Assembly: GCA_023485405.1 (NCBI GenBank) | Contig: JAMCZU010000032.1 | Span: 400 to 64,399 of the forward strand | From: Patescibacteria group bacterium | Lineage (GTDB): Bacteria; Patescibacteriota; UBA1384; UBA12157; JAENIV01 | Direction of reading: 5' to 3' | DNA length: 64,000 nucleotides | Shown: one piece after another, positions 2,695-50,088 of the stretch | Layout: each line of letters opens with the position of its first letter | How positions within the stretch are numbered: position 1 is the stretch's first letter | Position numbers and translations under genes: made by a program | Notes under the pieces: generated by a model | Seen by the model: the letters and a program-made list of their open reading frames with translations, nothing else | The model's database searches: none | Told to the model about the DNA's origin: nothing

Positions 2695-2700
2695 TAATGA

Positions 2701-4095: not shown

Positions 4096-4141
4096 GAGTC
4101 TAGCGTATCATCTTATTAAATTAGTGTTTAATTAAACCTTT

Positions 4142-4176: not shown

Positions 4177-4182
4177 TTGGAA

Positions 4183-12546: not shown

Positions 12547-12560
12547 TTTTCTCCTAAAAT

Positions 12561-34887: not shown

Positions 34888-34920
34888 AAAGGCGTATCAA
34901 ATTGATACGCCTTGTCAAAA
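34886..34920 (-). terminator. hairpin terminator ggcgtatca-aat-tgatacgcc flanked by A and T tracts
   Basis: 9-bp perfect stem; on the minus strand it is followed by cttttt; lies between the GC-rich RNA-like locus and the uvrD start. Confidence 0.45.
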
Positions 34921-34926
34921 AATAGC

Positions 34927-35475
34927 GTCAGGAACGGATAGTTCTTAGTACGGATCGGATCAATCCATTCCCGAGTCCGGGGTTTGCTTGTCTCCCCACG
35001 CTCTGTGCCTGTGTACTCCGGCCGATTCCAGCCTTCCACAGAGTTCGCGTAGCCGGAAGTGGCTGTTAATTTTTGTGCTTTTTTATTTTCTGGTTTTTCG
35101 CGCCTTTTGCGCAGAATATAACCTTCAAGCTTGGCCTTTGCTTGAAGCCAGCCGCCAATTATAGATAGCACGGCCCGACCTATTTTATTGCTTCTGTTTC
35201 AAGACCTTCTTTTTCCTTTCCGTACTAAGGGAAATTTGGGTCTCTAGCTGGTCGGTCTGTTCCCAGCAAACTGATAATATTCTATCATAGATTAGTTACA
35301 ATGTCAAGACTTTTTGGTAAATTAAAAGGCGCGATCGGAATCGGCCCAAATATACTTTAAATTATTGGCCGTCGTCGCGCCTTTATGGTATGGGCAAAGT
35401 AATTGGCTTTGTCCCTACCATAAGCATAAGCTTACAGTAAGAACAGCATAACTCCACCCCTGTTCTTCTCATCGT
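34927..35475 (+). ncRNA. GC-rich ORF-free structured-RNA candidate (possibly RNase P RNA-like; strand and identity uncertain)
   Basis: 10-bp long-range complements cttagtacgg (34945) / ccgtactaag (35221) and cggccgattcc (35018) / ggaatcggcc (35338); gagtccgggg plus downstream acggcccgacc resemble RNase P CR-I/CR-V (a P4 with a bulged nucleotide); gcttgaagccag P15-like; terminal hairpin plus U tract near 35436-35480. Confidence 0.3.
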
Positions 35476-35530
35476 TTTATTTCGATGATTACATTATTAT
35501 ACCGTATTTTAGACCAAAAGTCAATGGTTC

Positions 35531-35578
35531 TTTACATTCCTAAACCTATTGTCCACCTACGAGGTGGACATTTCGGTT
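35531..35578. repeat. REP2 element copy 2: tttacattcctaaacctattgtccacct-acg-aggtggacatttcggtt
   Basis: near-identical to the copy at 18387; abuts the dnaB stop. Confidence 0.75.
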
Positions 35579-38183
35579 ATGTCTCCTTTAGCTTCTTTTC
35601 GATGGTAGCAAACTTCATATATTCTGGTTTCCAGTAAAGTTGAACGTCGCCAGTGGGACCATGACGATGCTTGCGGATTAAAATTTCGGCAATATTTTTC
35701 TTTTCGGAATCTTGTTCATACATCTCGTCACGATAAATAAACATCACCACGTCGGCGTCTTGTTCTATGGAATTATGAACAACAATATCGTTAGCGATAA
35801 AATTATGGTTTTTTGGCACCGTTATATCATAAACTGATTCAACACCAACTTCCTTAATTTCAGCTATTTCATCCCAAAAAATATCCGAATCAGCCAAATC
35901 ACTAAGCACACCATCTCCTAAAACTTGGGCGATACTAGAAAGACGATTTCTAGAAATGCCATTATTATATCGCTGCGTGCCAGAATATGCCCATTGCATT
36001 TCTTGGTGGAATTGTCTCGTTGTCCAACCTAAATCCGTAAATTTTTGCACAATTTTCTGCCAAATATCTTTAGGAATAATATCAACATTAGTGTTTGGCT
36101 CGATTTGCCTTAAATCTTTAATTGCTTTTTTAACAATTTTATCTTTGCGACCAAAAATCCCGATCTCTTCCATAAATTTTAATTGATTTTCCGACCCTGA
36201 AATTACAAGATCAAAGACTGGCAAATACCCCCTCTTTTTATTGATTTTAATTCTTGATTGTATCTCAAAACGAAGCAATAAATGCTGTAAGCTTTTAATT
36301 AGTTTTTCACTTTTAGAAGCATAATGTAATCGCCAAATTCCCGAAGAAAAAGTCAAACCACCATCAGTTGAAAAAAGATGTCTGACAAAAAGAGCCAATT
36401 GCTTTTGAGATAATGTAAAGATAAGCTCAGGAATTTCTTTTTCACCAGAACGTTGGTCAAAAATCCCCAATTCTTCATCGAGCCACTTTACGATGGGATT
36501 TCTCCGACCACGAGCCAATGGCGCTGGTGCAGAAAGGTAAAGATGAAACCAAGTTTTTTGTTTAACTAAACGATTTTTTGTTCCAAATGCTTTTTGAGAC
36601 GCTCGATCAACAATACTAATACTTTCTGGATCAGCATTGGTGTAATGAAGTGGTTGATGTTTAAGATAGCATCCATCACCAATTAAATGAGCAAGTACAA
36701 TAATTTTTTCGTCTGACATTGTCACAATATTTTTAAAATCAATTCGCCGAGGGGTTGCTAACCGATCACCACCCGCTAATTTATCTAATCTCTCCCAGCC
36801 ATTAATAGTCATAAATTGATGATTGGCTGTTGCCTTAATTTTCCGGCCGCTTTTAAAAATAAGTTCAAAAACTTTTTTTCTTCCTGTTGAAAAGACTTTA
36901 TTGGCTATTTCTTTGAGTAATTTACCTTGTCCATCAACTGTTAAAACAGTAAATTCTTTTTGACCAACTAGTTTTTCAATTGGCTGGCAAATGCCTGTTT
37001 TAGCATTAAAAATTAAAGTGTCGCCGGTTAAACAACCACTCTCTCTAAGATCAGCTAACATTGGTTTTTTATCTGGACGGTGCTCCACTGCTCGGGATAG
37101 TTGCGATAAAGCTAATATTGGTACATTTAATTCCCTAGCTAAGGCTTTGAGTGAGCGGGAAATTTCCGAAACTTCTTGGACCCGATTGTCAGAACCCTTC
37201 GTGCTCATCCCCGACATTAATTGCAAATAATCAATCACAATTAAACCAAGATCTTGCTCCATCAAAAGTCGGCGACCTTTAGTTCTAATTTCCATCACAT
37301 TTAAAAAGGGTGAGTCATCAATAAAAATGGGTGTTTCTGAAAGCATCCCCATGGCATAATTTAATTTACCGAAATCTTCATCTTCCAAATTACCGGTACG
37401 TAACTTCCAGGAATCAACTGAACCTCGAAGGCACAAGAGTCGGTCAATAATCTGTTCTTTGGACATTTCCAACGAGAAAATTCCGACCGCTTGTTTATGT
37501 TCACAAGCAACATGATCGGCAATATTTAAAGCAAAAGCCGATTTACCCACCGACGGCCGAGCCGCCAGGATCACTAAATCTGATTTTTGCAAACCAGCCA
37601 GGACATTGTCTAAATCCCGAAAACCAGTCGGCACGCCTCGAATTGCCCCTTTTTCTTTGTGCAACTTGTCAATTCGATCAAAAGAATCAGCTAAAATATC
37701 TTTAATTGGCGTGAAATACTGTTTAACATATTTTTGCGAAACACTAAATAAAGTACTTTCGGCCCGATCTAAAATTGTCTCGAGTTCAGAATTTTCATCA
37801 AAACCAAGCTCGGTGATAGTCGCCGCGGCTGTGACTAAGCGCCTTAAAGTTGCTTTTTGATGAACAATATTAGCATAAGTTGTGATATGAGCAGCGGTTG
37901 GTACCGAATTGACCAAAGTAGCAATGTACGATGCACCACCAATACTTTTCAGTTTCTTATCTTTTTCTAATTCGTTGGTCAAAGTGACCACGTCAATCGG
38001 TTTTCGTTTTTCAAACAGTTTAATAATACAACTATATATAGTAGCGTGATCTTCGCGGTAAAAATCATCCGATCGCAAAATATCAGCCACTTTAATAATG
38101 GCATTTTGATCCAAAAGCACTGAACCTAGAACTGATTGCTCTGCTTCAATATTTTGTGGGGGAACCTTTATGCCGTCGGGCAT
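35577..38183 (-). CDS. dnaB: replicative DNA helicase DnaB containing an intein
   Basis: Walker A ARPSVGKSAF; H4 motif split as KPMLADLRESG|intein|SIEQDADVVMF. Confidence 0.9.
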   Translation of the reverse strand: MPDGIKVPPQNIEAEQSVLGSVLLDQNAIIKVADILRSDDFYREDHATIYSCIIKLFEKRKPIDVVTLTNELEKDKKLKSIGGASYIATLVNSVPTAAHITTYANIVHQKATLRRLVTAAATITELGFDENSELETILDRAESTLFSVSQKYVKQYFTPIKDILADSFDRIDKLHKEKGAIRGVPTGFRDLDNVLAGLQKSDLVILAARPSVGKSAFALNIADHVACEHKQAVGIFSLEMSKEQIIDRLLCLRGSVDSWKLRTGNLEDEDFGKLNYAMGMLSETPIFIDDSPFLNVMEIRTKGRRLLMEQDLGLIVIDYLQLMSGMSTKGSDNRVQEVSEISRSLKALARELNVPILALSQLSRAVEHRPDKKPMLADLRESGCLTGDTLIFNAKTGICQPIEKLVGQKEFTVLTVDGQGKLLKEIANKVFSTGRKKVFELIFKSGRKIKATANHQFMTINGWERLDKLAGGDRLATPRRIDFKNIVTMSDEKIIVLAHLIGDGCYLKHQPLHYTNADPESISIVDRASQKAFGTKNRLVKQKTWFHLYLSAPAPLARGRRNPIVKWLDEELGIFDQRSGEKEIPELIFTLSQKQLALFVRHLFSTDGGLTFSSGIWRLHYASKSEKLIKSLQHLLLRFEIQSRIKINKKRGYLPVFDLVISGSENQLKFMEEIGIFGRKDKIVKKAIKDLRQIEPNTNVDIIPKDIWQKIVQKFTDLGWTTRQFHQEMQWAYSGTQRYNNGISRNRLSSIAQVLGDGVLSDLADSDIFWDEIAEIKEVGVESVYDITVPKNHNFIANDIVVHNSIEQDADVVMFIYRDEMYEQDSEKKNIAEILIRKHRHGPTGDVQLYWKPEYMKFATIEKKLKET
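35772..37034 (-). other. intein (421 aa) with double-motif LAGLIDADG homing endonuclease in the DnaB H4 motif
   Basis: starts CLTGDTLI after RESG, ends IVVHN before SIEQDAD; internal LAHLIGDGCY and FVRHLFSTDGG LAGLIDADG-like motifs. Confidence 0.85.
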
Positions 38184-38337
38184 TCTGCCCTCCTTTGAAT
38201 AAACTTAAAACTCAAAAGTTAAAACTACAACAGAAAGCTCAAACAATTATTATCTTTTTAGCTTTATCATGCAGTTTTCAGTTTTGCACTTTTAGTTTTT
38301 AGTTGCAACATGTGGAAACTGTGGATTATGGGGATAA

Positions 38338-39945
38338 CTATTCTTCAATATCAAAAACTTCCTTGGCGCCGTTTAAGAGTTCTTCTTCACTGTCAGTCGG
38401 TTTTCTAACCACTAACGCAGGGTCAACCACACAGTTAAGTTTATAATTAGTACCCGTATTTTTTTGAATGATGCCTTCAATAATTTGCGTATTGCGCTTG
38501 CCAGAGATCATGTCGGCATGAAATTTAAATTTAAAAGCTAAGGTGATAGTGTCATCTTGGGTTTCGGCTAAAACCGCATCTTTTAAAAGGGCAGATAAAG
38601 AATGATTATGAGCTTTGGCACCTTTAATAATTTCTTGCCAGAGATCTTGATTGAAGTTTTTTTTCTTAGCCTCGGGTCGTCCCTCACTCTCGGGCTCCCT
38701 AACCAACCTATTCCCTCGCTCCGCTCGGTCAACCGCCACTTCGTTCAGGACATCCCCTCGGCTATTAACATTTTTCTCTTCTATTTTTACATTTTCATTC
38801 AGAATTCTGAATTCTGAATTCTGAATTCCCTTTGTAAACTCAAAAACAATCATTTCGAGTGGCAACTGTGGCAAAGAGGCTGATTTAATTTGCGGTAAAG
38901 CTAGAGCGAATTTTTCGATCATTTTCATTAAAAAATTTACTTCAAACATCTCAGCTATTTTTTTTACTTTGTCCTGCTCTTCTTGGGTTAAATCAAAAAG
39001 TTGATCTTCTCCCAATTTCCACAAAGCAATTTTTCGCAAAACCTCAATCAATTTAATGGTAAAATTTTCAAAATCAACACCCTGCAAATGAAGTTTTGAA
39101 ATAAGTTCAAAAGCTAATTTTCGATTTCCCGCGGCGAGTGCTTCGGAAAAATCAAAAACACTTTTATCTTGGGCCAAACCTAAAATTTGTTGAATTTGTT
39201 CGAGGGTAATATTGGAAGCGGCTGTTTTTCTAATTGACGAAATTTGGCCAAACAGAGATAGAGCATCCCTGTACGAGCCAGCTGCCAGTTGTGACAAGAG
39301 GCCAATGGCCTCGTCATCAATCTTAATTCCTTCCACTTGAGCCACCTTTTTAAGTAATTTTTTTAGTTCCTCTAAATCCGCCCGACGAAAATCAAATCTT
39401 TGAACACGAGATAAAATCGTTGGCAAAATCTTTTGCGGTTCAGTGGTCGCCATAATAAAAATGGCATGAATAGGTGGTTCTTCTAAAGTTTTAAGAAGTG
39501 CATTAAAAGCCTCCTTGGTTAACATATGGACTTCGTCAATAATGTAGATCTTATAATTTGATTTGGTCGGCGCAAAACGAATTTTTTCCCGCAAGTCTCT
39601 AATTTCGTCAATGCCTCGATTAGAAGCGGCATCAATTTCAATCAAATCCAATGATTTTCCAAGTGTTATTTCTTTGCAAGTTGAACATTTATTACAAGGC
39701 TCGTATGAATCTTTTGCCAAAACTCTGCCCGTGCAATTTAAAGCTTTAGCCATAATTCGGGCTAGTGTTGTTTTTCCCGAACCCCTCGGTCCCGCAAATA
39801 AATAACCATGCGAAAAATCTCCTGACGAAAGAGCATTGGTCAAGGTTTGAACAATATGTTCCTGCCCCATAATATCAGCAAATTTTTGTGGTCTAAATTT
39901 TCGATAAAAAACCATACACGCTCCCTTAGGTCGCTTAATTTTCAA
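38338..39945 (-). CDS. dnaX: DNA polymerase III subunit gamma/tau; start probably the internal MVFYRKFRPQ Met
   Basis: GPRGSGKTTLARIMAKALNC Walker A; Zn module CNKCSTCKEI; SRVQRF sensor. Confidence 0.9.
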   Translation of the reverse strand: MKIKRPKGACMVFYRKFRPQKFADIMGQEHIVQTLTNALSSGDFSHGYLFAGPRGSGKTTLARIMAKALNCTGRVLAKDSYEPCNKCSTCKEITLGKSLDLIEIDAASNRGIDEIRDLREKIRFAPTKSNYKIYIIDEVHMLTKEAFNALLKTLEEPPIHAIFIMATTEPQKILPTILSRVQRFDFRRADLEELKKLLKKVAQVEGIKIDDEAIGLLSQLAAGSYRDALSLFGQISSIRKTAASNITLEQIQQILGLAQDKSVFDFSEALAAGNRKLAFELISKLHLQGVDFENFTIKLIEVLRKIALWKLGEDQLFDLTQEEQDKVKKIAEMFEVNFLMKMIEKFALALPQIKSASLPQLPLEMIVFEFTKGIQNSEFRILNENVKIEEKNVNSRGDVLNEVAVDRAERGNRLVREPESEGRPEAKKKNFNQDLWQEIIKGAKAHNHSLSALLKDAVLAETQDDTITLAFKFKFHADMISGKRNTQIIEGIIQKNTGTNYKLNCVVDPALVVRKPTDSEEELLNGAKEVFDIEE

Positions 39946-40115
39946 TTTTTAATTTTAAATTTTTATTGAATTTTAAAATTCGAATTTTGAATTTGATTTT
40001 AAATTTGAAATTTATAATTTAATCATTTTTACTATATTCTATTTTAGTAAAAACACAAATTATGCTACAATGTGGATAACAAGTTAGAAGCAGGCATAAA
40101 GATGTTGGAGGGGTT

Positions 40116-41990
40116 TTGACATCAACAGATTTAAAAAGAGCGATTGCTCAAAAAACAGCTATTCCACCAGAAGTAGTCGCTAAAACTCTTGATATTATTC
40201 AACAAACTATCAGTACCGAACTTTCGACCGGCCGAAGTGTTAATTTCCCAGGCTTTGGTAATTTTGTTTTAATTAAATATCCGCCCAGAACAATTAAAGA
40301 TGTTCGTAACCCCGCTAAAACTTATCTTTCTTTAGAAAAGAATAAAGCAAAATTCAGGCCAAGTCTTGACTTTAAAAAAGAGCTTCTTGAAAAACCAACG
40401 CCGCCAAAACAAGATACCACTCCAGAAAAAGAAAATAATTCTTTTGATCAGACAATTAATGTTTGTTATGTTGATTTATCGAAAACCACTGTGCCGAAAA
40501 AAATCTTAAATTTATTGCCGGAACACATCGCCCGTCATTATCAAATCGTTCCATTAGAAGAAAAAAATAACAAAATAGTAGTGGCAATGATTGATCCAGA
40601 AGATCGCGAAGCAATTGAATTTGTCAAAAAGAAGACGGGGATGGATCTAGATATTCGACTTTGCACTCAAGCAGATTTAAATCATGTTTTAGAACAGTAT
40701 TCGGCTGTTTCAGGCGAACTTAAGAAAATTATTGAATCCGCTGAAGAAGACGAGGAAATACCCACTCAAAAAGGACCAAGCAAAGAAAAAGTTGAAGAAA
40801 TCACTGAAACTGCCCCGGCCGCTAAAATTGTTCAATCACTGATTAAAAGAGCGGTTCGGGAAAAAGCTTCTGATATCCACATTGAACCTCAAGAAGAAGA
40901 AATTATTGTTCGATTTCGCGAAGACGGTATTTTAAAAGAAATCATTAAACTACCTAAAGAAATTCAAAGTGGTATTTCTTCACGAATTAAAATTCTTTCG
41001 GATATGAAAATTGACGAAACAAGATTGCCCCAAGATGGTCGCTTTCAAACTGTGCTTGATGGTGCCGAAGTTGATTTTCGCGTTTCCACTTTACCTACCG
41101 TCAACGGCGAAAAGGTAGTCATGAGAATTCTAGATAAATCAGCCGGTATTTTAACTCTGGAACAATTGGGACTGCGCGGCAGCGCTTTTGTCACACTTGA
41201 AGATAATATCCACAAAGCGCATGGGATGGTGTTAGTGACTGGCCCAACTGGTTCAGGTAAAACCACAACTCTATACGCTGTGATTGATAAAATCCAAAGT
41301 GTCGGGATAAATATTGTCACCTTGGAAGATCCGGTTGAGTACCGCATGCCTCGAGTTAATCAATCTCAAGTTTATACCAAAATCAATTTTACTTTTGCTA
41401 ACGGTCTTCGCTCGATTGTCCGTCAAGATCCAGATGTGATTATGATTGGGGAAATTCGAGACTACGAAACAGCCGATATGGCTATTCATGCCGCACTAAC
41501 GGGACATGTTGTTTTGTCAACCTTGCATACGAACGACGCCGCTGGTGCTATTCCTCGAATGATGGATATGAAAATTGAGCCATTTTTGATTAATTCATCG
41601 GTAAATTGTATTGTGGCGCAACGACTTTGCCGCCGGATTTGCGATAATTGCAAGGAAGAAATGACGGTTGACTCTTCTGAACAAAAACTGGCCGAAGAAG
41701 AACTAAAAAAAATGCCCGAAAAAGAAAAAAGACCAGAAAAAATTCAATTTTTCCACGGCAAAGGCTGCGAAAATTGTAATGGCACAGGTTACAAAGGCCG
41801 GATTGGTATTTTTGAAGTTTTTGATTTGAAAGATAATTTGAAAGAATTAGTTGCCAAACGGGCGTCAGGCACAATTTTAGGCCAAGAAGCCATTAAAAAC
41901 GGGATGGTGACAATGAAACAAGACGGTTTTTTAAAAGTAGTAGATGGCTTAACAACACTCGAGGAAGTCTGGCGAGTGACTAAAGACTAA
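40116..41990 (+). CDS. pilB: type IV pilus assembly ATPase PilB/GspE with an N-terminal HU/IHF-like DNA-binding domain; TTG start
   Basis: residues ~3-90 match the HU fold (GFGNFVL…RNPAKTY…KAKFRPSLDFKKEL); then GSPII_E N domain, Walker A VLVTGPTGSGKTTTLYA, and tetra-Cys CRRICDNC…CENCNGTGYKGR. Confidence 0.85.
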   Translation: MTSTDLKRAIAQKTAIPPEVVAKTLDIIQQTISTELSTGRSVNFPGFGNFVLIKYPPRTIKDVRNPAKTYLSLEKNKAKFRPSLDFKKELLEKPTPPKQDTTPEKENNSFDQTINVCYVDLSKTTVPKKILNLLPEHIARHYQIVPLEEKNNKIVVAMIDPEDREAIEFVKKKTGMDLDIRLCTQADLNHVLEQYSAVSGELKKIIESAEEDEEIPTQKGPSKEKVEEITETAPAAKIVQSLIKRAVREKASDIHIEPQEEEIIVRFREDGILKEIIKLPKEIQSGISSRIKILSDMKIDETRLPQDGRFQTVLDGAEVDFRVSTLPTVNGEKVVMRILDKSAGILTLEQLGLRGSAFVTLEDNIHKAHGMVLVTGPTGSGKTTTLYAVIDKIQSVGINIVTLEDPVEYRMPRVNQSQVYTKINFTFANGLRSIVRQDPDVIMIGEIRDYETADMAIHAALTGHVVLSTLHTNDAAGAIPRMMDMKIEPFLINSSVNCIVAQRLCRRICDNCKEEMTVDSSEQKLAEEELKKMPEKEKRPEKIQFFHGKGCENCNGTGYKGRIGIFEVFDLKDNLKELVAKRASGTILGQEAIKNGMVTMKQDGFLKVVDGLTTLEEVWRVTKD

Positions 41991-42001
41991 AAAGAGGTAT
42001 A

Positions 42002-43219
42002 ATGAAATTTATTTACAACGCAAAAAGTTCTAAAGGAGAAATTCAAAATGGCAATCTGGAAGCGCCGAACGAGACGGCAGCGGCCAAAATGCTTCAAGAG
42101 CAAGGACTTTTTGTTTTAAATTTAGCCAAAGAAGGGGAAAATAAACTGACCCAAAAAGGAAATATTAAAATTCCCTTTTTGTCAGACCGAGTCAGCTTAA
42201 AAGACAAAATTATTTTTACGCAGCAATTAGCAATGATGGTCAAATCTGGCCTGCCGCTGATTGATGCTTTTGGCGCTTTAAAAGAACAAACCGAAAATAA
42301 ATATTTCGCCGGGGTGATTGCTGACCTAGCCGAAAATGTCCGCGGCGGCAAAACATTTTCAGGAAGCCTTTTAAAATACCCCAAGATTTTTTCTAATTTT
42401 TATATTGCGATGATTTCTTCTGGTGAAAAAAGCGGTAAATTAGACGAGGTTTTAGGGAGATTAGCCGAAGAATTAGAAAAAGATTACGAACTTATCTCTA
42501 AAGTTAAAGCGGCAATTACTTATCCAATTTTAATCGTTTTCGCCTTGATTGGTATTATTATTTTAATGCTAATTTTTGTCGTGCCACAGCTTAAAAAAAT
42601 ATTTTCGGATATAGGTGTAGAATTACCTTTGATTACTAGAATAATTCTAGGCAGCAGCGACACAATGATTAAGTATTGGTATTTATTTTTAATTGGTCTA
42701 ATTGGTTTGGCTGTTGGTTTACGTTTTTACGGTAAAACCACCAAAGGTGGCTTAGTACTTGATAGCCTTAAAATTAAAGTGCCGGTGATTGGGAAACTTT
42801 TTCGTAAAATTTATATGGCTAGATTTTGCCGTACCGCTGGTTCACTGGTTGTTTCAGGACTGCCTATTCTAGATATTATTAAAACTACTTCCAAAGTTTT
42901 AGGAAATCGTGTTTATCAAGTGGCTTTAGAAAAAACTGGTGAAGATGTTAAAAATGGTCTGACTTTTTCGTCGGCGCTTAAAAAACAAAAAATATTTCCG
43001 GCCATGATTTATCATCTTGTTTCCATCGGTGAAAAAAGCGGTAAATTAGACGAAATATTATTGACGATGGCCGTTTTCTTTGATCGTGAAGTTGAAGCCA
43101 CCACCAACAGTTTAGCCAGTTTAATTGAGCCAATTCTAATTATTATTGTCGGTGCTGGTGTTGGTTTAGTGGTTGCTTCGGTGATTATGCCAATTTATTC
43201 ATTAGTCAATGTAATATAA
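42002..43219 (+). CDS. pilC: type IV pilus platform protein PilC (GspF family)
   Basis: two T2SF repeats, each with three TM segments. Confidence 0.9.
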   Translation: MKFIYNAKSSKGEIQNGNLEAPNETAAAKMLQEQGLFVLNLAKEGENKLTQKGNIKIPFLSDRVSLKDKIIFTQQLAMMVKSGLPLIDAFGALKEQTENKYFAGVIADLAENVRGGKTFSGSLLKYPKIFSNFYIAMISSGEKSGKLDEVLGRLAEELEKDYELISKVKAAITYPILIVFALIGIIILMLIFVVPQLKKIFSDIGVELPLITRIILGSSDTMIKYWYLFLIGLIGLAVGLRFYGKTTKGGLVLDSLKIKVPVIGKLFRKIYMARFCRTAGSLVVSGLPILDIIKTTSKVLGNRVYQVALEKTGEDVKNGLTFSSALKKQKIFPAMIYHLVSIGEKSGKLDEILLTMAVFFDREVEATTNSLASLIEPILIIIVGAGVGLVVASVIMPIYSLVNVI

Positions 43220-43222
43220 AAT

Positions 43223-44584
43223 ATGAAAAAAGGATTTACTTTAATTGAAGGGATTATTGTTGTTTTTGTTTTGTCGTTGGTGGCCTTGGCTATAATGACC
43301 GCTTATATTGGTGTTTATAAATCAATTGATTTGGCCAAAGCTAAAATTACGGCTGTTTCGATCGCCAATGAAAAAATGGAAATTCTAAGAAATATGCCTT
43401 ACGACAGTTTAGCCACAGTCCATGGACCAATTTTACCACAAGGTAGTATTCTTGATGACGAAACGGTTACTAGTTCAGGCAAAACCTTTAATGTTCATAC
43501 GGACATTAAATACGTTGATGATCCTTTCGATGGTCTGTTGCCAATTGATATCTATCCTTATGACTATAAAAAAGCCGAGATTACCGTCACTTCCACCAAA
43601 TATAATACCCGGCTGGCGCAACTTTCGACTAATATTGCCGCCAAAGCCGCCGAAACACCTTCTAACACTGGTATTATTAAAATCTGTGTCATTGATGTCG
43701 CCAATCTTCCAGTTGTCGGTGCCACTATTACCATTACCAATACCACGCTGACACCAACGGTTAATGTCACCACCACCACTGGTTCAGACGGCTGTGTGAT
43801 GGTACCAAAATTACCACCTGACAATAACAATAATTACCACTTGACCGCCACCAAAGATGGCTATTCAACTGATATGACTTATCCTCGAACCGCTCAAAAT
43901 CCCAATGAACCTTTGGCAGATGTTGATGTTTACGCCCAGCAAGTCACCAGTCAAACTTTTGTCATTGACCGTCTTGCCAATCTGACACTGCATTTTAGTA
44001 ATCCCGTTACTTTTACTTTACAAGGCAGTAAAAAAATGTACTTTAATCCCGTCACTTATAAATATTCTCAAACTTTTACCACTGATAGTGGTGGCAACAT
44101 TACCCTTAACAATTTGGAATTTGATAATTACCGAATAATTAATACTTCTTCGCCTTATTTTGTGGTCACCACCTCACCTCTTCGATCAGTTAATGTGGAA
44201 GGTCTTTGGTATTTTTATTTGGCCCCAGCTGCTAATTTAACCGTTCAGGTTAATTTAGCGTCAACAGGAAGTAATCCGTCAATTTATAACTATTTACCTT
44301 TAAGTGGTCAAGTTGGCAGTACGGTCAATATTGCCGTCAATGGTGGTAATATTCAAAATAACGCTTCAATTAAACTTCATAAAACAATTATGACGTATGT
44401 TGGTTCAACTCAAGTACCTCAAGATATCGAAATTGTGGGTACCAATATCACTGTTACGCCTCAAAATCAAATAATTGCTGACTTTAATTTAACGGGGGCC
44501 GAGTTAGGTAGTTGGGACCTAATAATCACTAATCCCAACACAGAAAGTGTGATTCAGACAAATGGCTTTGAAGTTACAAATTAA
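43223..44584 (+). CDS. large prepilin-like protein (N-terminal methylation motif plus beta-rich C-terminal domains)
   Basis: MKKGFTLIEGIIVVFVLSLVALAI; Thr/Val-rich Ig-like C-terminus. Confidence 0.6.
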   Translation: MKKGFTLIEGIIVVFVLSLVALAIMTAYIGVYKSIDLAKAKITAVSIANEKMEILRNMPYDSLATVHGPILPQGSILDDETVTSSGKTFNVHTDIKYVDDPFDGLLPIDIYPYDYKKAEITVTSTKYNTRLAQLSTNIAAKAAETPSNTGIIKICVIDVANLPVVGATITITNTTLTPTVNVTTTTGSDGCVMVPKLPPDNNNNYHLTATKDGYSTDMTYPRTAQNPNEPLADVDVYAQQVTSQTFVIDRLANLTLHFSNPVTFTLQGSKKMYFNPVTYKYSQTFTTDSGGNITLNNLEFDNYRIINTSSPYFVVTTSPLRSVNVEGLWYFYLAPAANLTVQVNLASTGSNPSIYNYLPLSGQVGSTVNIAVNGGNIQNNASIKLHKTIMTYVGSTQVPQDIEIVGTNITVTPQNQIIADFNLTGAELGSWDLIITNPNTESVIQTNGFEVTN

Positions 44585-45155
44585 AAAATATGACGGTTTT
44601 AGCCTAATGGAATTAATGGTAACAATTACGATTTTAATATTGATGAGTACGGCTTTTATGGTTTTATTTAGTAATGGCTACAAAACATATAGATACAACC
44701 GAGAGATGATTGGTAGCGCCGAACAAGCCGCCATTGGCATCAGAGCCTTTGAAAAAACTGCCCGCGGCGCGACCAATATTACTGAGGCCGCCAATAATCT
44801 TTTGACTTTCTTGGCTTATCAAAAAGGCGATAATTATCCGGCGCCCAGTAAAATTAGTTTTTACCTGACCGGCGCTAGCTTCTACAAATCAGTTATTCCT
44901 CCTACTCCTTCGGGCTCAACTTACATTTATCAAGATGCGGACAAAGTTGTCACCCTTATCACTGATCACGTCAGCAGTCAAAACATGTTTTCATATTATA
45001 ATGAAGCCGGAACATTGCTTTCGATGCCACCGGCTAAAGAGGCAATTAAAATGATTAATTTTTCTATCACCATTGATTTAGATCCGGCCCAAGCACCAAA
45101 TGGTGTCAACCAATCAACAAAAGTAGAACTTCGAAATTTAAAGACAAATCTTTAA
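44562..45155 (+). CDS. minor pilin/pseudopilin
   Basis: DG|FSLMELMVTITILILM prepilin cleavage/methylation motif. Confidence 0.6.
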   Translation: MALKLQIKKYDGFSLMELMVTITILILMSTAFMVLFSNGYKTYRYNREMIGSAEQAAIGIRAFEKTARGATNITEAANNLLTFLAYQKGDNYPAPSKISFYLTGASFYKSVIPPTPSGSTYIYQDADKVVTLITDHVSSQNMFSYYNEAGTLLSMPPAKEAIKMINFSITIDLDPAQAPNGVNQSTKVELRNLKTNL

Positions 45156-45156
45156 A

Positions 45157-46506
45157 ATGAAAATTAAAATAAATAAATTAAAATCAAAACACAAAGGTTC
45201 TCTTTTGCCATTGGTTTTAATCGCTTCATTTTTATTTATTGCTTTTGCTTATGCTCTAGTGGCCATTGCCATGAGTAATGTTAATACCGCTCGCTACCAC
45301 GAAAAAACTGTCTCCGCCCTAGAAGTCGCTGAAGCAGGCATCAATTATTATATGTGGCATTTGTCGCATTCTAACACCGATTACTGTGACGGCCAAACTT
45401 GCCCTGCGGGGTCACCTTACGGTCCTTACGTTCATAATTACCAAACAGAAAATGGCAGTATTATTGGTCAATACACCCTTACCATTACCCCACCCGCACC
45501 TGGCGATGCCATTGTTACAGTTAAATCGGTTGGTAAAATTAATGGCTCAAGTGCTAACCGAACCGTTGTGGCTGAAGTAGGAATGCCTTCTTTTGCTCGC
45601 TACGCATTTCTGACTGCCACCGAAGCATGGTTTGGTGACACCGAAACAACCAACGGACCGGTTCACTCTAATATTGGCATTCATTTTGACGGCACCGCTA
45701 ATGGGGTGGTTTCATCCTCATCAACAACTTATGTTCCTTCAACCAGTTTTGGCGGCGATGGTCATACTTCTCACAACGGTGTCTGGGGCAACGGTGGCCC
45801 AACTGGTTATTGGACTTTTCCCGTGCCAACAGTAGATTTTGGCCATGTCTCGGTTGATTTAACTACTTTAAAAAGTAAAGCCGGTAATGGTGGTATACTT
45901 CTTGGTAAAACAACGGGAGGTAATATTGGTTACTATTTAAAACTTAAGCCTAATAACACGATTGAAGTTTATTATGTTACCAGAGAAAGAACTTCTGGCA
46001 TTGCAATTAGTTCTCTTGTAGAAACTCGCAATGCACCGATCAATGGTGTTGTTTATGTTTCAGACAACATTTGGGTTGATGGTACTTATAACGCACCAAT
46101 CACTATTGCTGCTGTCGCCGATTCCGGCCAATACGCTAAAATTAAAATCAAAGACAATCTTCTTTATTCAACTAAAAACGGTTCAGTTAAAATTGGCTTA
46201 ATTGCTAAAGGTAATATTGAAGTGCCCCAATATGCTAACACTAATTTAGAAATTGATGCGGCTTTACTTTCACAAAACGGTCATGTTTGGTACCCACAAG
46301 CTGGTGGAGTTAAAAACAGTATCACTATTTATGGTTCAGTTTCATCTTTTGATTATTGGACATGGTCTTGGGTTAGTGGTGGCGGTACTGTTACCTCCGG
46401 CTACCAAACAACAACCCAAACCTACGATCAAAATTTAACTTTAGGACCACCGCCCCAGTTTCCGACTACCGGCAGCTATACCATTTTAACTTGGAAAGAA
46501 GAATGA
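45157..46506 (+). CDS. PilX-like pilus assembly protein
   Basis: N-terminal TM followed by ...NVNTARYHEKTVSALEVAEAGINYY (PilX_N-like). Confidence 0.5.
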   Translation: MKIKINKLKSKHKGSLLPLVLIASFLFIAFAYALVAIAMSNVNTARYHEKTVSALEVAEAGINYYMWHLSHSNTDYCDGQTCPAGSPYGPYVHNYQTENGSIIGQYTLTITPPAPGDAIVTVKSVGKINGSSANRTVVAEVGMPSFARYAFLTATEAWFGDTETTNGPVHSNIGIHFDGTANGVVSSSSTTYVPSTSFGGDGHTSHNGVWGNGGPTGYWTFPVPTVDFGHVSVDLTTLKSKAGNGGILLGKTTGGNIGYYLKLKPNNTIEVYYVTRERTSGIAISSLVETRNAPINGVVYVSDNIWVDGTYNAPITIAAVADSGQYAKIKIKDNLLYSTKNGSVKIGLIAKGNIEVPQYANTNLEIDAALLSQNGHVWYPQAGGVKNSITIYGSVSSFDYWTWSWVSGGGTVTSGYQTTTQTYDQNLTLGPPPQFPTTGSYTILTWKEE

Positions 46507-46536
46507 TATAATATAGTAAAGAAGAAATAAGGCTAA

Positions 46537-46580
46537 GCTCGCCTTCGGCGAGCCGCCCGATTCCGATGTAACATCGGAAT
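46537..46580 (+). promoter_or_regulatory. two tandem intra-operon hairpins between pilX-like and pilM (UUCG tetraloop stem; 9-bp stem attccgatg-taa-catcggaat)
   Basis: gctcgcc-ttcg-gcgagc and attccgatg-taa-catcggaat lie just before the SD gggagaggg and the pilM ATG. Confidence 0.35.
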
Positions 46581-46592
46581 TTAGGGAGAGGG

Positions 46593-47519
46593 ATGTACGA
46601 ATCAGTCTTGGGATTTAAAAAACCTATCCTAGGTTTAGATATTGGTTATAAAACTTTAAAAGTAATGCAACTTCGTGGCGATGGCCCCGGATCCAGTCTT
46701 TTAGGTGTGGCGGAAATTCAAATTCCTCCTAGAAGTTTGGGTAAAGAAGGTATTAAAGAAAAAGAAGCCATTGCCAAAGCAATTACCAATGCAATGCTTA
46801 GTGCTAAGCCACACTCAATCACCGCTAAAATTGTTTCTTCAGCTCTACCAGAATCATTAGTTTTTACCAAATCAGTTGATTTGCCAACAATGACTCCTCA
46901 AGAAATAAACAAAAATATTCCTTATCAAGCCGGTGAATTTTTCCCTATCCCGCCCAGTGAAACTTATATGGATTGGCAAGTAGTCGGAGAACTTCCTGGT
47001 ACAAACACCACTGATGTTTTGGTCGTCGCCGCTCCTAAAATAATTATTGATTCATTCGCCGAAACGATCAAAATGGCCGGATTAGAATTAATGAGTTTAG
47101 AAACCAAACCAGTAGCTGATGTCAGGGCTTTAATTTCAGGAAGTGACAGAGGACCTTATTTGATCTTAGATCTCGGCGCCAAAACATCGAGTCTTACCTG
47201 TTATGATCAAGGCACGGTTAAACTGACTTCGACAATTTCGATCGGCGGCGACGATTTGACAAATGATTTCCAACCAAATTTAAAAAATATGGTAACTGAA
47301 ATTATTCATTTTGCCAAGTATTATCAAAATCGTATTGGACAAGCAACTATTTTTCATAAAATTATTTTAGCTGGCGGTGGTGCCAATACCAACGGCCTGA
47401 GGAAAACACTGGAAGATGCCACGCGAATAAAAACAGAAATTACTTGGCCAATCATTAAAACAAAAACCTATAATCCTAAATACGCCACCGTCATAGGATT
47501 AGCGATGAAAAGAATATGA
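46593..47519 (+). CDS. pilM: type IV pilus assembly protein PilM (actin-like ATPase fold)
   Basis: ILGLDIGYKTLKVMQL N-terminal phosphate-1 motif; ~310 aa. Confidence 0.85.
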   Translation: MYESVLGFKKPILGLDIGYKTLKVMQLRGDGPGSSLLGVAEIQIPPRSLGKEGIKEKEAIAKAITNAMLSAKPHSITAKIVSSALPESLVFTKSVDLPTMTPQEINKNIPYQAGEFFPIPPSETYMDWQVVGELPGTNTTDVLVVAAPKIIIDSFAETIKMAGLELMSLETKPVADVRALISGSDRGPYLILDLGAKTSSLTCYDQGTVKLTSTISIGGDDLTNDFQPNLKNMVTEIIHFAKYYQNRIGQATIFHKIILAGGGANTNGLRKTLEDATRIKTEITWPIIKTKTYNPKYATVIGLAMKRI

Positions 47520-48079
47520 TAAATATTAATTTACTTCCCCCGGAATTAAAATTGCAAAGGATCGCCGCCAAAAGAAATGCTTCTCTTATCAGTATTTGTA
47601 TTGTGGCTGTTTTAATTGTGGCTATCTTGGGTATTATTAGCCAATCATTAAAGTCAACGGTTGAAACATATCTTAGTAGTACTAAAAATAATATCAAAAA
47701 AGAATCCGATCAAATTGATCAATACCAGGAGCTTCAAGATCTAGCCTTATTTACTAATGACCGTTGGCAGACAACCCAAGAAATTGAAAAAAATCATGTT
47801 TACTGGTCTCAAGTTCTCCAAGAACTAAGTAACTGTGCCCCCACCGATGTTCAATTCGAAAACTTAGTGGCTAACAGTGAAAAATCGCCTAATTTTATTC
47901 TTCAAGGAAATACCACCACTGAAAGAGAAATTATTAAATTTAAAGATAAATTGGAAGCTTCGCCATTTTTCAAAAACATTGCTTTTAAAAGTTCAAGTCT
48001 TTCCACCGATCAAGCTACTACCAATCAAAAATTAAAATTTACTTTAGAATTTGATTTAGAACAGAAGAAAGTTGAATGA
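47516..48079 (+). CDS. pilN: PilN
   Basis: INLLPPELKLQR followed by a single TM. Confidence 0.75.
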   Translation: MININLLPPELKLQRIAAKRNASLISICIVAVLIVAILGIISQSLKSTVETYLSSTKNNIKKESDQIDQYQELQDLALFTNDRWQTTQEIEKNHVYWSQVLQELSNCAPTDVQFENLVANSEKSPNFILQGNTTTEREIIKFKDKLEASPFFKNIAFKSSSLSTDQATTNQKLKFTLEFDLEQKKVE

Positions 48080-48819
48080 TGAAAAATAAATCATTATTTA
48101 TTTTAACCGTTACTTTTGTCATTATTTTGGGCATTGCAATATTTTTAATTAGACCAGTTGTCTCTTCAATCCTTGCTTCATATAAAGATTTATCTCAAAC
48201 AAAAGAAAATCTTAAATTAATTGAAGAAAAAAAACAGATTCTTGAATCTTTAAAAAGTAACCAAAACTTAACCAAAGTAGCTGACATTGCGGAAAAATAT
48301 ATTCCCAAAGAAGAAGAATCGGGTCAATTAATTATTGAATTAACTGCCATCGCCCAAGCTAATAACTTAAGAGTTGACCAAACCTCAATTGAAAAATCAA
48401 AAGATACTCCCACTGCTGATAGCACTGATACTAACACCACTGGTAAAGCAACGCCAACACCGTCATCTACCACTGCTGGTTCCACTATTAAAACAGTTAA
48501 TTTTACCGAAAAATTAAATGGCAGTTATGTTGACTTTATAAATTTTCTCAAAGCGCTGGAAGCAAGTTCACGATTAATTCTGGTAAAAAATATTTCAATG
48601 CAGACAAAAACCGAGCAAGGTAAACCCACCTCTTTCGATGTCCAGCTTTCTGGTTCGGCTTATTACAAAAGTAAAGTTGATTTAGAGCAAAATTTGACCA
48701 ACATTAAAATTACCGAAGAAACTTTAAATAAATTCTTAAATTTAAAAAGCTATGGTCAACCAATTAATCTGCCGGGCGAATCAGGTTTCGGTCGAACTAA
48801 TCCATTTGAGAGCTATTAA
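48076..48819 (+). CDS. pilO: PilO-like
   Basis: TM plus coiled coil; Thr-rich linker; gene order pilM-N-O. Confidence 0.6.
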   Translation: MMKNKSLFILTVTFVIILGIAIFLIRPVVSSILASYKDLSQTKENLKLIEEKKQILESLKSNQNLTKVADIAEKYIPKEEESGQLIIELTAIAQANNLRVDQTSIEKSKDTPTADSTDTNTTGKATPTPSSTTAGSTIKTVNFTEKLNGSYVDFINFLKALEASSRLILVKNISMQTKTEQGKPTSFDVQLSGSAYYKSKVDLEQNLTNIKITEETLNKFLNLKSYGQPINLPGESGFGRTNPFESY

Positions 48820-48908: not shown

Positions 48909-49289
48909 TTACTCGCCGAGGGCCTTTTTAATTTTGGCAATGACTTCACCAGGCATTGTTTCTGATTTAACAATATAGTCAGTCGCACCTAATTTTTTGC
49001 CCTGTGCCCGGTCAACATCTTGAATTAAAGCAGTCAGCATAATAATCGGTATATCTTTAAATTCTACGTCACCACGAAGATTCTTTAAAACATCAAAACC
49101 ATTTACTTTAGGCATCATGACATCTAAAATAACCAAGGCTGGTTTTATTTCTCGAGCTTTATTGAGTGCTTCTTCGCCATTTTTAGCTTGAACAATTGTA
49201 AAACCTTCGGCTTTGAGACGATCTTCGTACATTTCAAGTAATGTTAAATCGTCATCAACTAATAAAATTGTCTTTCCCGTCTGCTCCAT
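48909..49289 (-). CDS. single-domain CheY-like response regulator
   Basis: LLVDDD..., phospho-acceptor Asp in VILDVMMP, conserved T and K. Confidence 0.8.
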   Translation of the reverse strand: MEQTGKTILLVDDDLTLLEMYEDRLKAEGFTIVQAKNGEEALNKAREIKPALVILDVMMPKVNGFDVLKNLRGDVEFKDIPIIMLTALIQDVDRAQGKKLGATDYIVKSETMPGEVIAKIKKALGE

Positions 49290-49362
49290 AAAATTCCTTC
49301 TAGTTACAGTTACATTGTAACATGTAAATACAATCGGTCAAATTTGTCAAATCAATAGCTAA

Positions 49363-50088
49363 TCATTTGTTAACAATGAAGCGTAGATAAAAGAAGATAT
49401 CACTAGCGATAATTAAAAAAACAATCAAAACTAAAAAAAAGAGGACCAAAGATGAAGGTTTTTTTCGAGGTAGTGGTTCTGGTGGTGATTCTTTTAGTGC
49501 TAATGGTTCAAATTGAATTTCCGGTGATTCGGTCACATTTTGAGCCGAGGCGACCGGTGGAACAGGTGGCGGTGGAGGTGGTGGAGGGTTTTCTGGCGGT
49601 GGGGCAGCCGGTGGCGTAGCTGCTGGCGGTACGATTGGTGGGGCAGGATTTTCATTTTGCGGTTCAACATCCACCGCTTCAGTCACTGGTTTGGTTACCA
49701 CTTTTTTATGATACTTATTTAAAACATTTTCAATTTTTTTAATCACATCAGCCGGCATCACTTCTGATTTGATAATATAATCATCCGCGCCAGACTCAAT
49801 CGCCCGACTTTTGTTAATATCTCGAACTAGCGCCGACAAAATAATCACTGGTATATCTTTAGTCTGAGGATCGCTTTTAATTGAAGCTAATGTTTCGTAA
49901 CCATTGACTTTAGGCATCATAATGTCTAACAAAACAATGTCAGGTTTAACATGATGAATTTTGGCTAAACATTCTTCGCCATTACTCGATGTTTCCACCT
50001 TAAAACCGGCCAACTCCAACCTCTCCTTGTACATATCAAGGAGCATCTTGTCATCGTCAACCATTAAAACTTTAGTACTGTTGGGCAT
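49363..50088 (-). CDS. response-regulator receiver domain, proline-rich linker, C-terminal TM anchor (start at ATG 50088, not the upstream track Met)
   Basis: SD ggagggg then ATG CCC AAC (MPNSTKVLMVDDD); PPIVPPAATPPAAPPPENPPPPPPPP; C-terminal hydrophobic LVLFFLVLIVFLIIA. Confidence 0.6.
   Translation of the reverse strand: MPNSTKVLMVDDDKMLLDMYKERLELAGFKVETSSNGEECLAKIHHVKPDIVLLDIMMPKVNGYETLASIKSDPQTKDIPVIILSALVRDINKSRAIESGADDYIIKSEVMPADVIKKIENVLNKYHKKVVTKPVTEAVDVEPQNENPAPPIVPPAATPPAAPPPENPPPPPPPPVPPVASAQNVTESPEIQFEPLALKESPPEPLPRKKPSSLVLFFLVLIVFLIIASDIFFYLRFIVNK

Follow-up and report, generated by a model that had tools for sequence, protein, structure and literature searches.

A gene of the pilus operon in the DNA analysed here, a stretch of 64,000 nucleotides hereafter called the window, encodes a PilB-type ATPase that begins with an HU/IHF-fold domain. 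This HU-PilB fusion is real; it arose once and has been vertically inherited throughout a branch of the ultra-small Patescibacteria. The bacterium is Berkelbacteria-like, and the fusion protein is the extension ATPase of its secretin-less type IV pilus. The HU domain stands in for the MshEN_N subdomain of PilB and is not merely added in front of it. The fusion suggests that the pilus motor may be physically tied to DNA inside the cell.

The HU-pilB gene and its product

The preliminary description had the HU part running without a stop into PilB, which the uninterrupted 624-aa reading frame bears out (Table 1). The gene starts with a TTG codon behind a Shine-Dalgarno sequence, and related loci keep GGAGGGG followed by a TTG/GTG/ATG-AC(A/T) start. 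The next methionine, M158, lies within MshEN_C, so no alternative start is available. Protein P0003 is identical to the window protein. Three significant Pfam domains are found in HU-PilB (PF00216, PF05157 and PF00437), and public annotations of proteins of this type read just GspE, PilB or TadA.

Table 1. Features of the HU-pilB locus, with positions in the window
Feature	Position	Strand	Basis and remarks
dnaX	38338–39945	−	Pfam DNA_pol3_delta2/gamma3; divergent from HU-pilB
Shine-Dalgarno GGAGGGG	40107–40113	+	Read from sequence; ahead of the TTG start of HU-pilB
HU-pilB gene	40116–41990	+	624 aa plus stop; one continuous ORF without internal stop
HU/IHF-fold domain, residues 1–90	40116–40385	+	Pfam PF00216, PDB profile match, AF2, Foldseek
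Disordered acidic/proline-rich linker 1, residues 91–117	40386–40466	+	AF2 pLDDT <50 for residues 93–115
MshEN_C (α/β half of the GSPII_E N-terminal domain), residues 118–197	40467–40706	+	Pfam PF05157
Acidic linker 2, residues 198–232	40707–40811	+	AF2 pLDDT <50 for residues 197–232; net charge −6
PilB/GspE N2 domain (residues 233–345) and C-terminal ATPase domain (residues 346–624)	40812–41987	+	Pfam T2SSE, NCBIfam; AF2 pLDDT mostly >85
Walker A GPTGSGKT, residues 376–383 (G376–T383)	41241–41264	+	Conservation in 52 homologues
Tetra-Cys zinc-site region (C509, C512, C551, C554)	41640–41777	+	4 of 4 Cys invariant in 52 homologues; metal binding predicted
pilC (platform protein)	42002–43219	+	Pfam T2SSF, two repeats, E = 2.5e-62; 11 nt downstream of pilB
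Two pilin-like genes (43223–44584 and 44562–45155)	43223–45155	+	N_methyl in both; CarboxypepD_reg/SpaA-like domains in the first
449-aa protein in the pilus operon	45157–46506	+	No Pfam match
pilM (46593–47519), pilN (47516–48079), pilO-like (48076–48819)	46593–48819	+	Pfam PilM_2, PilN, PilO/T2SSM_b

Fold of the N-terminal domain

The PF00216 (Bac_DNA_binding) match spans residues 1–90 and profile positions 1–89/90 (E = 7.9e-13; 48.9 bits against a cut-off of 22.4), and a profile of the N-terminal family matches Thermotoga HU (1b8z) end to end over residues 1–90 (E = 1.7e-17). AlphaFold (AF2) modeling of residues 1–95 (pLDDT 89.8) predicts the topology α1-α2-β1-β2-arm-β3-α3, with α1 at residues 3–14, α2 at 18–37, β1 at 42–44, β2 at 48–61, an apical loop at 62–68 that contains P66, β3 at 69–82 and α3 at 84–91. 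In a Foldseek search with this model all 45 matches at E ≤ 1e-3 were HU/IHF-type proteins. The model superposes on HU/IHF crystal structures, DNA complexes included, with TM scores of 0.78–0.84, for example on Anabaena HU-DNA 1p51 (TM 0.84, rmsd 2.2 Å). Weak secondary Pfam matches point to the HU-CCDC81/HU-HIG models. The domain is seen by profile and structure methods only: tblastn with E. coli HupA and B. subtilis Hbs against the window gave no match at 40116 and revealed no other hup gene.

In this model the HU fold is complete, and its extended arm is strongly basic and carries a proline at the apex. The Pfam, PDB profile, AF2 and Foldseek results uphold the earlier assignment of the first ~90 residues to an HU fold with β-arm and C-terminal helix. 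The RNP tripeptide that had been read as the canonical motif is, in contrast, out of register: R64-N65-P66 of the window protein do not correspond to HU R61-N62-P63, and a valine (Val63) occupies the Pro63 position. Compared with stand-alone HU/IHF proteins (1B8Z, Anabaena 1P51/1P71, E. coli IHF 1IHF), HU-PilB shares the full-length fold, the GFGxF/F79 dimer core, the long β-arm with most of its basic residues, the apical proline and the equivalents of R58, K/R78 and K86. It differs from them in being covalently joined to a 530-aa motor, in an arm signature 'Y-P-S-R-T-I' with R55 changed to Tyr and G60 to Ile/Val, in the loss of K3, and in an apical loop that is one residue longer, with the window valine at the canonical Pro63.

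Replacement of the MshEN_N subdomain

MshEN_N is a c-di-GMP-binding four-helix bundle with two tandem 24-residue RLGxx(L/V/I)(L/V/I)xxG... motifs (PMC5013675). Relatives of the window protein that have no HU domain carry ~59 helical residues ahead of the Pfam MshEN match; in the window protein the HU domain and its linker occupy this place. A four-helix MshEN_N with c-di-GMP motifs is absent from the window protein, residues 1–117 of which are HU domain and disordered linker. Linker 1 measures 26 aa in the window and 200–300 aa in a subclade, with a mean pairwise identity of 17% across the family. The MshEN_C part that follows is recognized by PF05157 over residues 118–197 (E = 1.9e-16) and aligns to residues 54–118 of V. 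cholerae MshEN (5htl) and to residues 71–161 of Geobacter PilB (5tsg).

The motor itself is matched by T2SSE (PF00437) over residues 230–620 with E = 1.6e-129, and among 52 homologues six Walker A residues are invariant, S380 and T383 being conserved in at least 90%. Three NCBIfam models match below their cut-offs: PilB TIGR02538 at 568.5 bits (equivalog cut-off 675.65; match from model position 48 of 564, which leaves the N-terminal subdomain unmatched), GspE TIGR02533 at 572.7 bits (cut-off 630.25) and ComGA NF041000 at 257.4 bits (cut-off 300; core matched only). The preliminary description of a canonical PilB holds for Walker A and the tetra-Cys site, and has to be narrowed for GSPII_E_N, of which only the α/β C-terminal subdomain is present. 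It was likewise right that the fusion is real, and overlooked that HU replaces the four-helix MshEN_N.

Canonical PilB (Geobacter metallireducens 5TSG/5TSH; Myxococcus 3JC8) and HU-PilB have in common the MshEN_C, N2 and ATPase domains, Walker A and the tetra-Cys site, and a gene that directly precedes pilC and shares its operon with pilins and pilM/N/O. HU-PilB differs in that the first ~50–60 residues (MshEN_N) are missing, with a 90-aa HU domain and a 26-aa disordered linker instead, and in scoring under the NCBIfam PilB equivalog cut-off. The MshE and Thermus PilF ATPases (5HTL; PMC5013675, PMC11731258) also combine a regulatory N-terminal module with the same ATPase core, and MshEN_C is common to them and HU-PilB; however, HU-PilB has neither of the two 24-residue c-di-GMP motifs and bears a nucleic-acid-binding fold rather than a second-messenger receptor.

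Gene neighbourhood

The pilus operon order, with pilC, the pilins and pilM/N/O after pilB, is kept in relatives: where the flank is long enough to show it, pilC comes next after pilB in nearly all related loci, and homologues of the 449-aa protein recur in pilus loci of other Patescibacteria. No secretin gene was present among the annotated genes of the window, and no second PilB, PilT or stand-alone HU was found there. The secretin-less type IV pilus set of the preliminary description is thus confirmed, with pilB, pilC, pilins, pilM, pilN and pilO all found.

Upstream, the divergent dnaX, with dnaB and uvrD further away, is conserved in the HU-PilB clade; dnaX synteny holds in 24 of the 28 loci labelled HU, three degenerate ones included. 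This proximity to dnaX-dnaB-uvrD may simply reflect gene order passed down by descent and is not taken as functional evidence. An AT-rich AATTTTA array in the dnaX/pilB intergenic region was considered as a possible HU target and dropped, being conserved in the nearest relatives only. Promoter and terminator scans around HU-pilB returned sites no more numerous than in shuffled sequence.

Distribution and single origin of the fusion

The combination PF00216, PF05157 and PF00437 was detected in ~100 of the best 120 homologue clusters, at 53–100% identity and in many independent assemblies drawn from NCBI, JGI, ENA and Logan. Among species representatives of the Patescibacteria, an HU domain or a remnant of one is carried by 30 of 75 PilBs. 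In a tree of the N2 and ATPase region, from which the HU domain was left out, all 30 of these form one clade with no non-HU member inside. The search for the fusion in related genomes, proposed as a check in the preliminary description, thus had a clear outcome: it is present in all close relatives and defines a deep monophyletic clade.

In an artefact reading, a frameshift in sequencing or assembly, or a wrong start call, would have merged separate hup and pilB genes. A single case favors it, contig L081, where HU (111 aa) and PilB (517 aa) are encoded as separate overlapping ORFs (P0223 and P0051). However, this split results from one extra C in a C-run of the linker, a 1-nt indel disrupts the adjacent dnaX as well, and the same gene is intact, in exact sequence, on 24 other contigs (27 blocks in the index). 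The breadth of the ~100 clusters from four sources, the monophyly of the HU-bearing clade, the conserved Shine-Dalgarno sequence and start codon and the lack of an alternative start in the window protein speak against it as well. The lone split copy being a 1-nt indel, a frameshift or mis-assembly origin is rejected, and the chance of an artefact is negligible. A search for a free-standing HU of the HU-PilB clade, word-indexed and of limited sensitivity, found only the frameshift fragment; its further matches were ordinary HUs at ≤73 bits.

Conservation and charge of the HU domain

Residue conservation was computed over 114 unique domains of the HU-PilB family. The dimer core is conserved (F47 97%, G48 100%, F50 92%, F79 91% with a further 7% W, P81 92%), and arginine or lysine dominates at positions 58 (94%), 64 (85%), 78 (96%) and 86 (81%). 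Other canonical contacts have changed: K3 is replaced by S/T, the R55 position is Tyr in 76% of the family, Gly60 is replaced by Ile/Val, and only 48% have a basic residue at position 61. Pro63 is kept in 50% of the family; the window protein has Val63 there, with Pro66 three residues later, and at least one apical proline is found in 93% of the domains. In H. pylori Hup the apical proline is important for binding DNA (PMC9089689).

The HU domain has a net charge of +8 (pI 10.1; family median +8), the remainder of PilB being acidic, and the arm contributes a net charge of +6 in the window (family median +5). The domain is under purifying selection, and diverges about twice as fast as the other parts of the protein (35–41% versus 63–72% mean pairwise identity), with similar values for arm and body (36% versus 35%). 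In 12 database homologues and in several genome-locus copies (L012, L021, L023, L024 and L026), the arm and α3 are lost or a degenerate remnant is all that is left. Such arm-less members make up about a tenth of HU-PilB relatives; the arm is therefore dispensable in some lineages.

A possible link between the pilus motor and DNA

We hypothesize that an HU dimer on a flexible tether connects the pilus motor in the cytoplasm with DNA, the most likely reading, to which we give a probability of roughly 0.45. In a single ancient event, the MshEN_N of PilB was swapped for an HU fold on a flexible linker. Since HU folds always occur as intertwined dimers, PilB protomers would pair through their N-termini, so that a hexamer would have at most three HU dimers, or pairing would join one hexamer to another. 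The HU dimers would clamp nucleic acid, most probably chromosomal double-stranded DNA, and the cytoplasmic base of the pilus machine would thereby be tethered to the nucleoid, or its assembly and activity would respond to DNA. Such a response could take the place of the lost small-molecule or partner input. The positive charge of the HU domain, the R/K-rich positions 58/64/78/86, the apical proline and the disordered, hypervariable linker argue for the tether; the loss of the K3 and R55 contacts, an R61 position that is basic in only 48%, the replacement of Gly60, the valine in place of Pro63 in the window, the faster divergence of the HU domain and the arm-less relatives argue against it.

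A tether of this kind matches one half of the function proposed in the preliminary description. Nucleoid tethering is plausible for a basic, arm-bearing domain on a flexible linker, whereas the capture of DNA outside the cell is topologically excluded because PilB is a cytoplasmic ATPase. The HU domain could meet incoming DNA only after its transport into the cytoplasm.

An alternative is that the HU fold was exapted and kept only as an obligate dimer, which would pair PilB protomers or dock to PilM, PilC or acidic membrane lipids in the adaptor role of the lost MshEN_N, with no part for DNA. The best-conserved positions are indeed those of the hydrophobic dimer core and not the canonical DNA contacts, several lineages retain α1-α2-β1 without arm and α3, and the domain sits at the exact site of the partner-binding subdomain of other PilB/GspE proteins; HU derivatives that do not bind DNA have been proposed before (PMC5499826). 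Against this, the arm is conserved as much as the body and is strongly basic within an otherwise acidic protein, an apical proline persists in most members, and linkers of 200–300 aa suit rigid structural pairing poorly. We regard such an exaptation as possible, though somewhat unlikely.

The tether can also be cast in a stronger form, in which the pilus motor is a DNA-bound machine. Its HU dimers would fasten either the chromosome or freshly imported DNA to the pilus base, the pilus would serve these ultra-small cells as a nucleoid anchor or organiser or as the cytoplasmic DNA receptor of uptake, and DNA would replace c-di-GMP as the motor input. We consider this version unlikely.

A coupling to competence would have the HU domain take transforming DNA on the cytoplasmic side near ComEC and protect it or hand it over, so that pilus cycles and import are co-localised. 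PilB-type ATPases such as ComGA and Thermus PilF are essential for natural transformation, which counts in its favor, as does the basic HU domain with its HU arm. Yet incoming DNA is single-stranded and HU is mainly a binder of double-stranded or distorted DNA, the genes make up a pilMNO (type IVa-like) set with the ComGA model under its cut-off, and no comEC, comEA or dprA is linked to the pilus cluster in the annotated parts of the window. A further point in favor of the coupling is that these bacteria are enriched in type IV pili and competence genes, which occur widely among them and for which a role in DNA uptake has been suggested (PMC6744442). With extracellular capture impossible for a cytoplasmic domain, a dedicated role in competence seems quite improbable.

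Relation to known HU fusions and significance

Bacterial proteins that combine HU-CCDC81 with a transmembrane helix and SPOR/LysM domains have been described, as have halobacterial TM-HU fusions (Burroughs et al. 2017, PMC5499826), and nucleoid-to-envelope tethering was proposed for those versions taken to retain DNA binding (PMC5499826). Like HU-PilB, they place an HU domain on an envelope-associated component; the partner in HU-PilB, in contrast, is a soluble hexameric pilus ATPase and not a membrane or peptidoglycan anchor. The eukaryotic fusion of HU-CCDC81 to a dynein heavy chain (PMC5499826) resembles HU-PilB in joining the HU fold to a ring ATPase motor, but it involves an unrelated motor class (AAA+ dynein) in an unrelated lineage, and the dynein-linked HU is predicted not to bind DNA (PMC5499826). 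The same survey mentions no PilB, GspE or secretion ATPase, and in the literature searched we found no description of an HU-PilB fusion or of any pilus or secretion ATPase with a built-in nucleoid-protein domain.

Host attachment, movement and DNA uptake in the ultra-small, host-dependent Patescibacteria are believed to depend largely on type IV pili. The lineage-wide swap of a second-messenger- or partner-binding subdomain for HU offers a concrete handle on how the pilus motor is regulated. If the HU domain does not bind DNA, HU-PilB would be a clean case in which an HU fold was co-opted for pairing proteins. If it does, the fusion would provide a direct physical link from the pilus motor to intracellular DNA, and would bear on how a quarter of bacterial diversity organises the nucleoid, takes up DNA and regulates its motors.

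An HU fold at the N-terminus of PilB

The preliminary description had read a continuous open reading frame in which an HU-type N-terminus runs into PilB, and the 624-codon frame, which has no internal stops and encodes three significant Pfam domains, bears this out. The Shine-Dalgarno sequence and start context (TTG, GTG or ATG, then AC(A/T)) are kept across related loci, which fixes the N-terminus; the next methionine, M158, lies within the domain after HU, so that a shorter HU-less product is implausible. Across 52 homologues the Walker A motif and all four cysteines of the zinc site are kept, two Walker A positions being at least 90% conserved and not invariant. The full-length AlphaFold model (pLDDT 80.6) shows folded parts separated by two disordered linkers.

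Coordinates of features in the HU-PilB protein and in the window
Feature	Position	Strand	Remark
Bac_DNA_binding (HU/IHF, PF00216)	residues 1-90		Pfam, full-length match; 48.9 bits against a cut-off of 22.4, E=7.9e-13
MshEN (PF05157)	residues 118-197		Pfam
T2SSE (PF00437)	residues 230-620		Pfam, E=1.6e-129
HU domain, folded	residues 1-91		AlphaFold
Linker 1, disordered	residues 93-115		AlphaFold
MshEN part, folded	residues 118-193		AlphaFold
Linker 2, disordered, acidic	residues 197-232		AlphaFold
N2 and ATPase domains	C-terminal to linker 2		AlphaFold
IS200-like Y1 transposase gene	2701-3378	-	
Three pilin-like genes (N_methyl, T2SSG)	11989-13172, 14955-15662	-	about 25 kb from pilus operon
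UvrD-type helicase	31921-34887	-	intein splicing domain
DnaB helicase	35577-38183	-	intein
AT-rich degenerate tandem array	39935-40023		about 12x AATTTTA
Shine-Dalgarno GGAGGGG	40107-40113		just 5' of TTG start
HU-pilB	40116-41990	+	TTG start
pilC, two pilin-like genes, 449-aa gene, pilM, pilN, pilO-like gene	3' of HU-pilB		
449-aa gene	45157-46506	+	no Pfam match
Two response-regulator genes and a 7TM-domain histidine kinase	48909-50172, 55389-57236	-	response regulators directly after pilus operon, kinase nearby

The HU assignment is supported by more than one model: Pfam, a family profile and the predicted structure. The profile, derived from 24 diverse N-terminal regions, finds Thermotoga maritima HU (1b8z) over its whole length at E=1.7e-17 and, after it, numerous other HU and IHF chains. 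Residues 1-95 are modeled with HU topology and an extended beta-arm (pLDDT 89.8), and the model superposes at TM 0.78-0.84 on crystal structures of HU and IHF, among them the Anabaena HU-DNA complex 1p51 (rmsd 2.2 Å). By profile, fold and core, the domain belongs to the HU/IHF superfamily. Its sequence is divergent; plain tblastn of E. coli or B. subtilis HU against the window left it undetected, the arm signature (Y-P-S-R-T-I...) is non-canonical, and the RNP element noted previously is present as R64-N65-P66 but three residues out of register with the canonical one.

Distribution and origin of the fusion

Searching the protein collection with the full-length sequence gave an identical protein in a Patescibacteria MAG, named 'Flp pilus assembly complex ATPase component TadA' by NCBI, and an 89%-identical homologue in Berkelbacteria GW2011_GWA1_36_9, named GspE. 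The PF00216+PF05157+PF00437 architecture occurs in about 100 further 90%-clusters (identity down to 53%), and the exact sequence of one relative was found on 24 independent contigs. Among GTDB species representatives, 30 of the 75 usable Patescibacteria PilB genes carry an HU domain or recognisable remnant; a neighbour-joining tree calculated from the N2+ATPase region, with HU left out and no bootstrap, unites them in a single clade without HU-less members, which implies that the fusion is ancient, happened once and has been inherited vertically. Most members that carry a label are Berkelbacteria or 'Patescibacteria group', and the PilBs of Moran-, Nomura-, Doudna-, Falkow- and Parcubacteria have no HU.

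That the fusion is an artefact is practically inconceivable, since the clusters sharing it are drawn from NCBI, JGI, ENA and Logan assemblies, and the single split copy (P0223, a 111-aa HU, and P0051, a 517-aa PilB, called as separate, overlapping genes at 2700-4554 of locus L081, ENA ERZ25039512 contig_69030) has a C-run in the linker that is one C longer than in intact copies. The adjoining dnaX is likewise broken by a 1-nt indel, which suggests homopolymer errors in this assembly. The split is not the ancestral state but an assembly error or recent lesion. Of the two doubts raised earlier, a frameshifted junction and absence from relatives, the first comes down to this 1-nt lesion and the second is answered by the roughly 100 clusters and the 30-member clade. 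Apart from the L081 fragment, a word-indexed search of limited sensitivity found no free-standing HU of this clade.

The full-length search also returned PilB relatives that lack HU, measure about 1,010 aa and show many extra P-loop family matches (P0088, P0101, P0103, P0106-P0109, P0114, P0119); inteins or a duplication of the ATPase may account for them. Three large proteins from the representative search (P0164, P0168, P0176) carry three or four HU domains with long charged low-complexity spacers, the first two with hydrophobic N-terminal segments.

Replacement of the MshEN_N subdomain

The MshEN crystal structure comprises MshEN_N (1-64), a four-helix bundle with both 24-residue c-di-GMP-binding motifs, and MshEN_C (65-145), an alpha/beta unit (PMC5013675). 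The MshEN part of HU-PilB aligns to V. cholerae MshEN residues 54-118 and Geobacter PilB residues 71-161, and is half a domain only. In Patescibacteria PilBs without HU, about 59 helical residues precede the Pfam MshEN match, at the position held in the window protein by HU and linker, and the NCBIfam PilB model matches HU-PilB only from position 48 of 564 onward. The half domain, together with the helices of HU-less relatives, indicates that HU took the place of a regulatory/adaptor subdomain and was not appended to a complete PilB. The earlier view of a canonical PilB with GSPII_E_N holds for the core, Walker A and cysteine site, but overlooked the absent MshEN_N half and its replacement. 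HU-PilB scores under both the PilB and GspE NCBIfam equivalog cut-offs and so fails the strict test for type IVa PilB, yet it resembles this type in core, operon context and zinc site and probably works like it; the c-di-GMP-sensing MshE/PilF type differs in its defining MshEN_N subdomain, which HU-PilB lacks.

Genomic context

A secretin-less type IV pilus set had been proposed, in agreement with the pil genes present; secretin, PilT, a second PilB and stand-alone HU genes were looked for in the window and not found. The order uvrD, dnaB, dnaX, divergent from HU-pilB, pilC ... pilM (window 31921-48819; loci L001-L037), is kept in nearly all HU-PilB loci, even at DnaX identity of just 31-40%, whereas HU-less Patescibacteria pilB is often preceded instead by a same-strand response-regulator gene. 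The AATTTTA array fills the dnaX/HU-pilB intergenic region and is conserved in the nearest relatives at most. Conservation does extend to the Shine-Dalgarno and start context and to a short motif, 'acaaattgtg..acaat'. The DnaB intein includes a LAGLIDADG homing-endonuclease domain, and the UvrD-type helicase has an intein splicing domain. The 449-aa gene has recognisable homologues in distant Patescibacteria pilus loci. A 7TM-domain histidine kinase lies near the two response regulators, and response regulators flank pilB in many other Patescibacteria too.

Features bearing on DNA binding

HU is an intertwined obligate dimer whose chains share one hydrophobic core and whose arms embrace DNA. 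Counted in favour of predicted DNA binding are the conserved core (F47 97%, G48 100%, F50 92%, F79 91%, P81 92%), a net charge of +8 (pI 10.1, arm +6; family median +8) beside an otherwise acidic PilB, basic residues at positions 58 (94%), 64 (85%), 78 (96%), 80 (R 69%) and 86 (81%), an arm as conserved as the domain body, and at least one apical-loop proline in 93% of 114 unique domains. In H. pylori Hup, mutation of the apical proline attenuated DNA binding (PMC9089689).

Counted against it are the loss of canonical K3 and R55, Ile/Val in place of G60, a basic residue at position 61 (canonical R61) in just half of the family, and Val for canonical Pro63 in the window and near relatives. To these are added copies reduced to alpha1-alpha2-beta1 or a degenerate remnant (12 database homologues; genome loci L012, L021, L023, L024, L026), and evolution about twice as fast as in the rest of the protein (35-41% vs 63-72% mean pairwise identity), although well above the 17% identity of the linker.

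Several of P0061-P0075, as well as P0113, have lost the arm and C-terminal helix or retain a barely recognisable HU remnant, with the PilB core kept. In one subclade (L016, L017, L019, L027, L029, L031, L032; P0111, P0121, P0124), a low-complexity charged linker of 200-300 residues joins HU to MshEN_C, and Trp replaces Phe at HU position 79.

Proposed role

The fusion, in which a complete, basic HU fold on a flexible linker has supplanted MshEN_N of PilB, is real, ancient and selected; the function of the domain we infer from HU itself. The N-termini of PilB protomers would pair through HU, the 26-residue linker giving enough reach between neighbours in the hexamer, and the paired dimers would bind nucleic acid, with chromosomal dsDNA as the likeliest target. 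In this way they may anchor the pilus machine, at its cytoplasmic base, to the nucleoid or, alternatively, make motor assembly or activity DNA-responsive, a reading to which we assign a probability of about 0.45. Linkers of 200-300 residues, as in one subclade, are more in keeping with a tether than with a rigid structural part. A DNA-independent dimerisation or adaptor module, favoured by the lineages without an arm and by the place that HU occupies in PilB, is somewhat unlikely. A cytoplasmic receiver of imported DNA is improbable, as uptake delivers DNA in single-stranded form and the annotated parts of the window show no competence gene linked to the cluster. Since PilB is cytoplasmic, the HU-mediated DNA capture by the pilus envisaged in the preliminary description is excluded on topology, while its nucleoid tethering is retained tentatively; its observation is confirmed and its interpretation partly supported.

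Literature searches found no description of any HU-PilB protein, and papers on Patescibacteria pili handle PilB as ordinary (e.g. PMC6744442). The nearest conceptual precedents are the HU-CCDC81 fusions surveyed by Burroughs et al. 2017 (PMC5499826), in bacteria to membrane/peptidoglycan anchors, proposed as nucleoid-envelope tethers, and in eukaryotes to dynein; a PilB/GspE fusion is absent from the HU fusions in that survey. HU-PilB is thus apparently a new form of a familiar machine component, one not described before and common to a whole clade.
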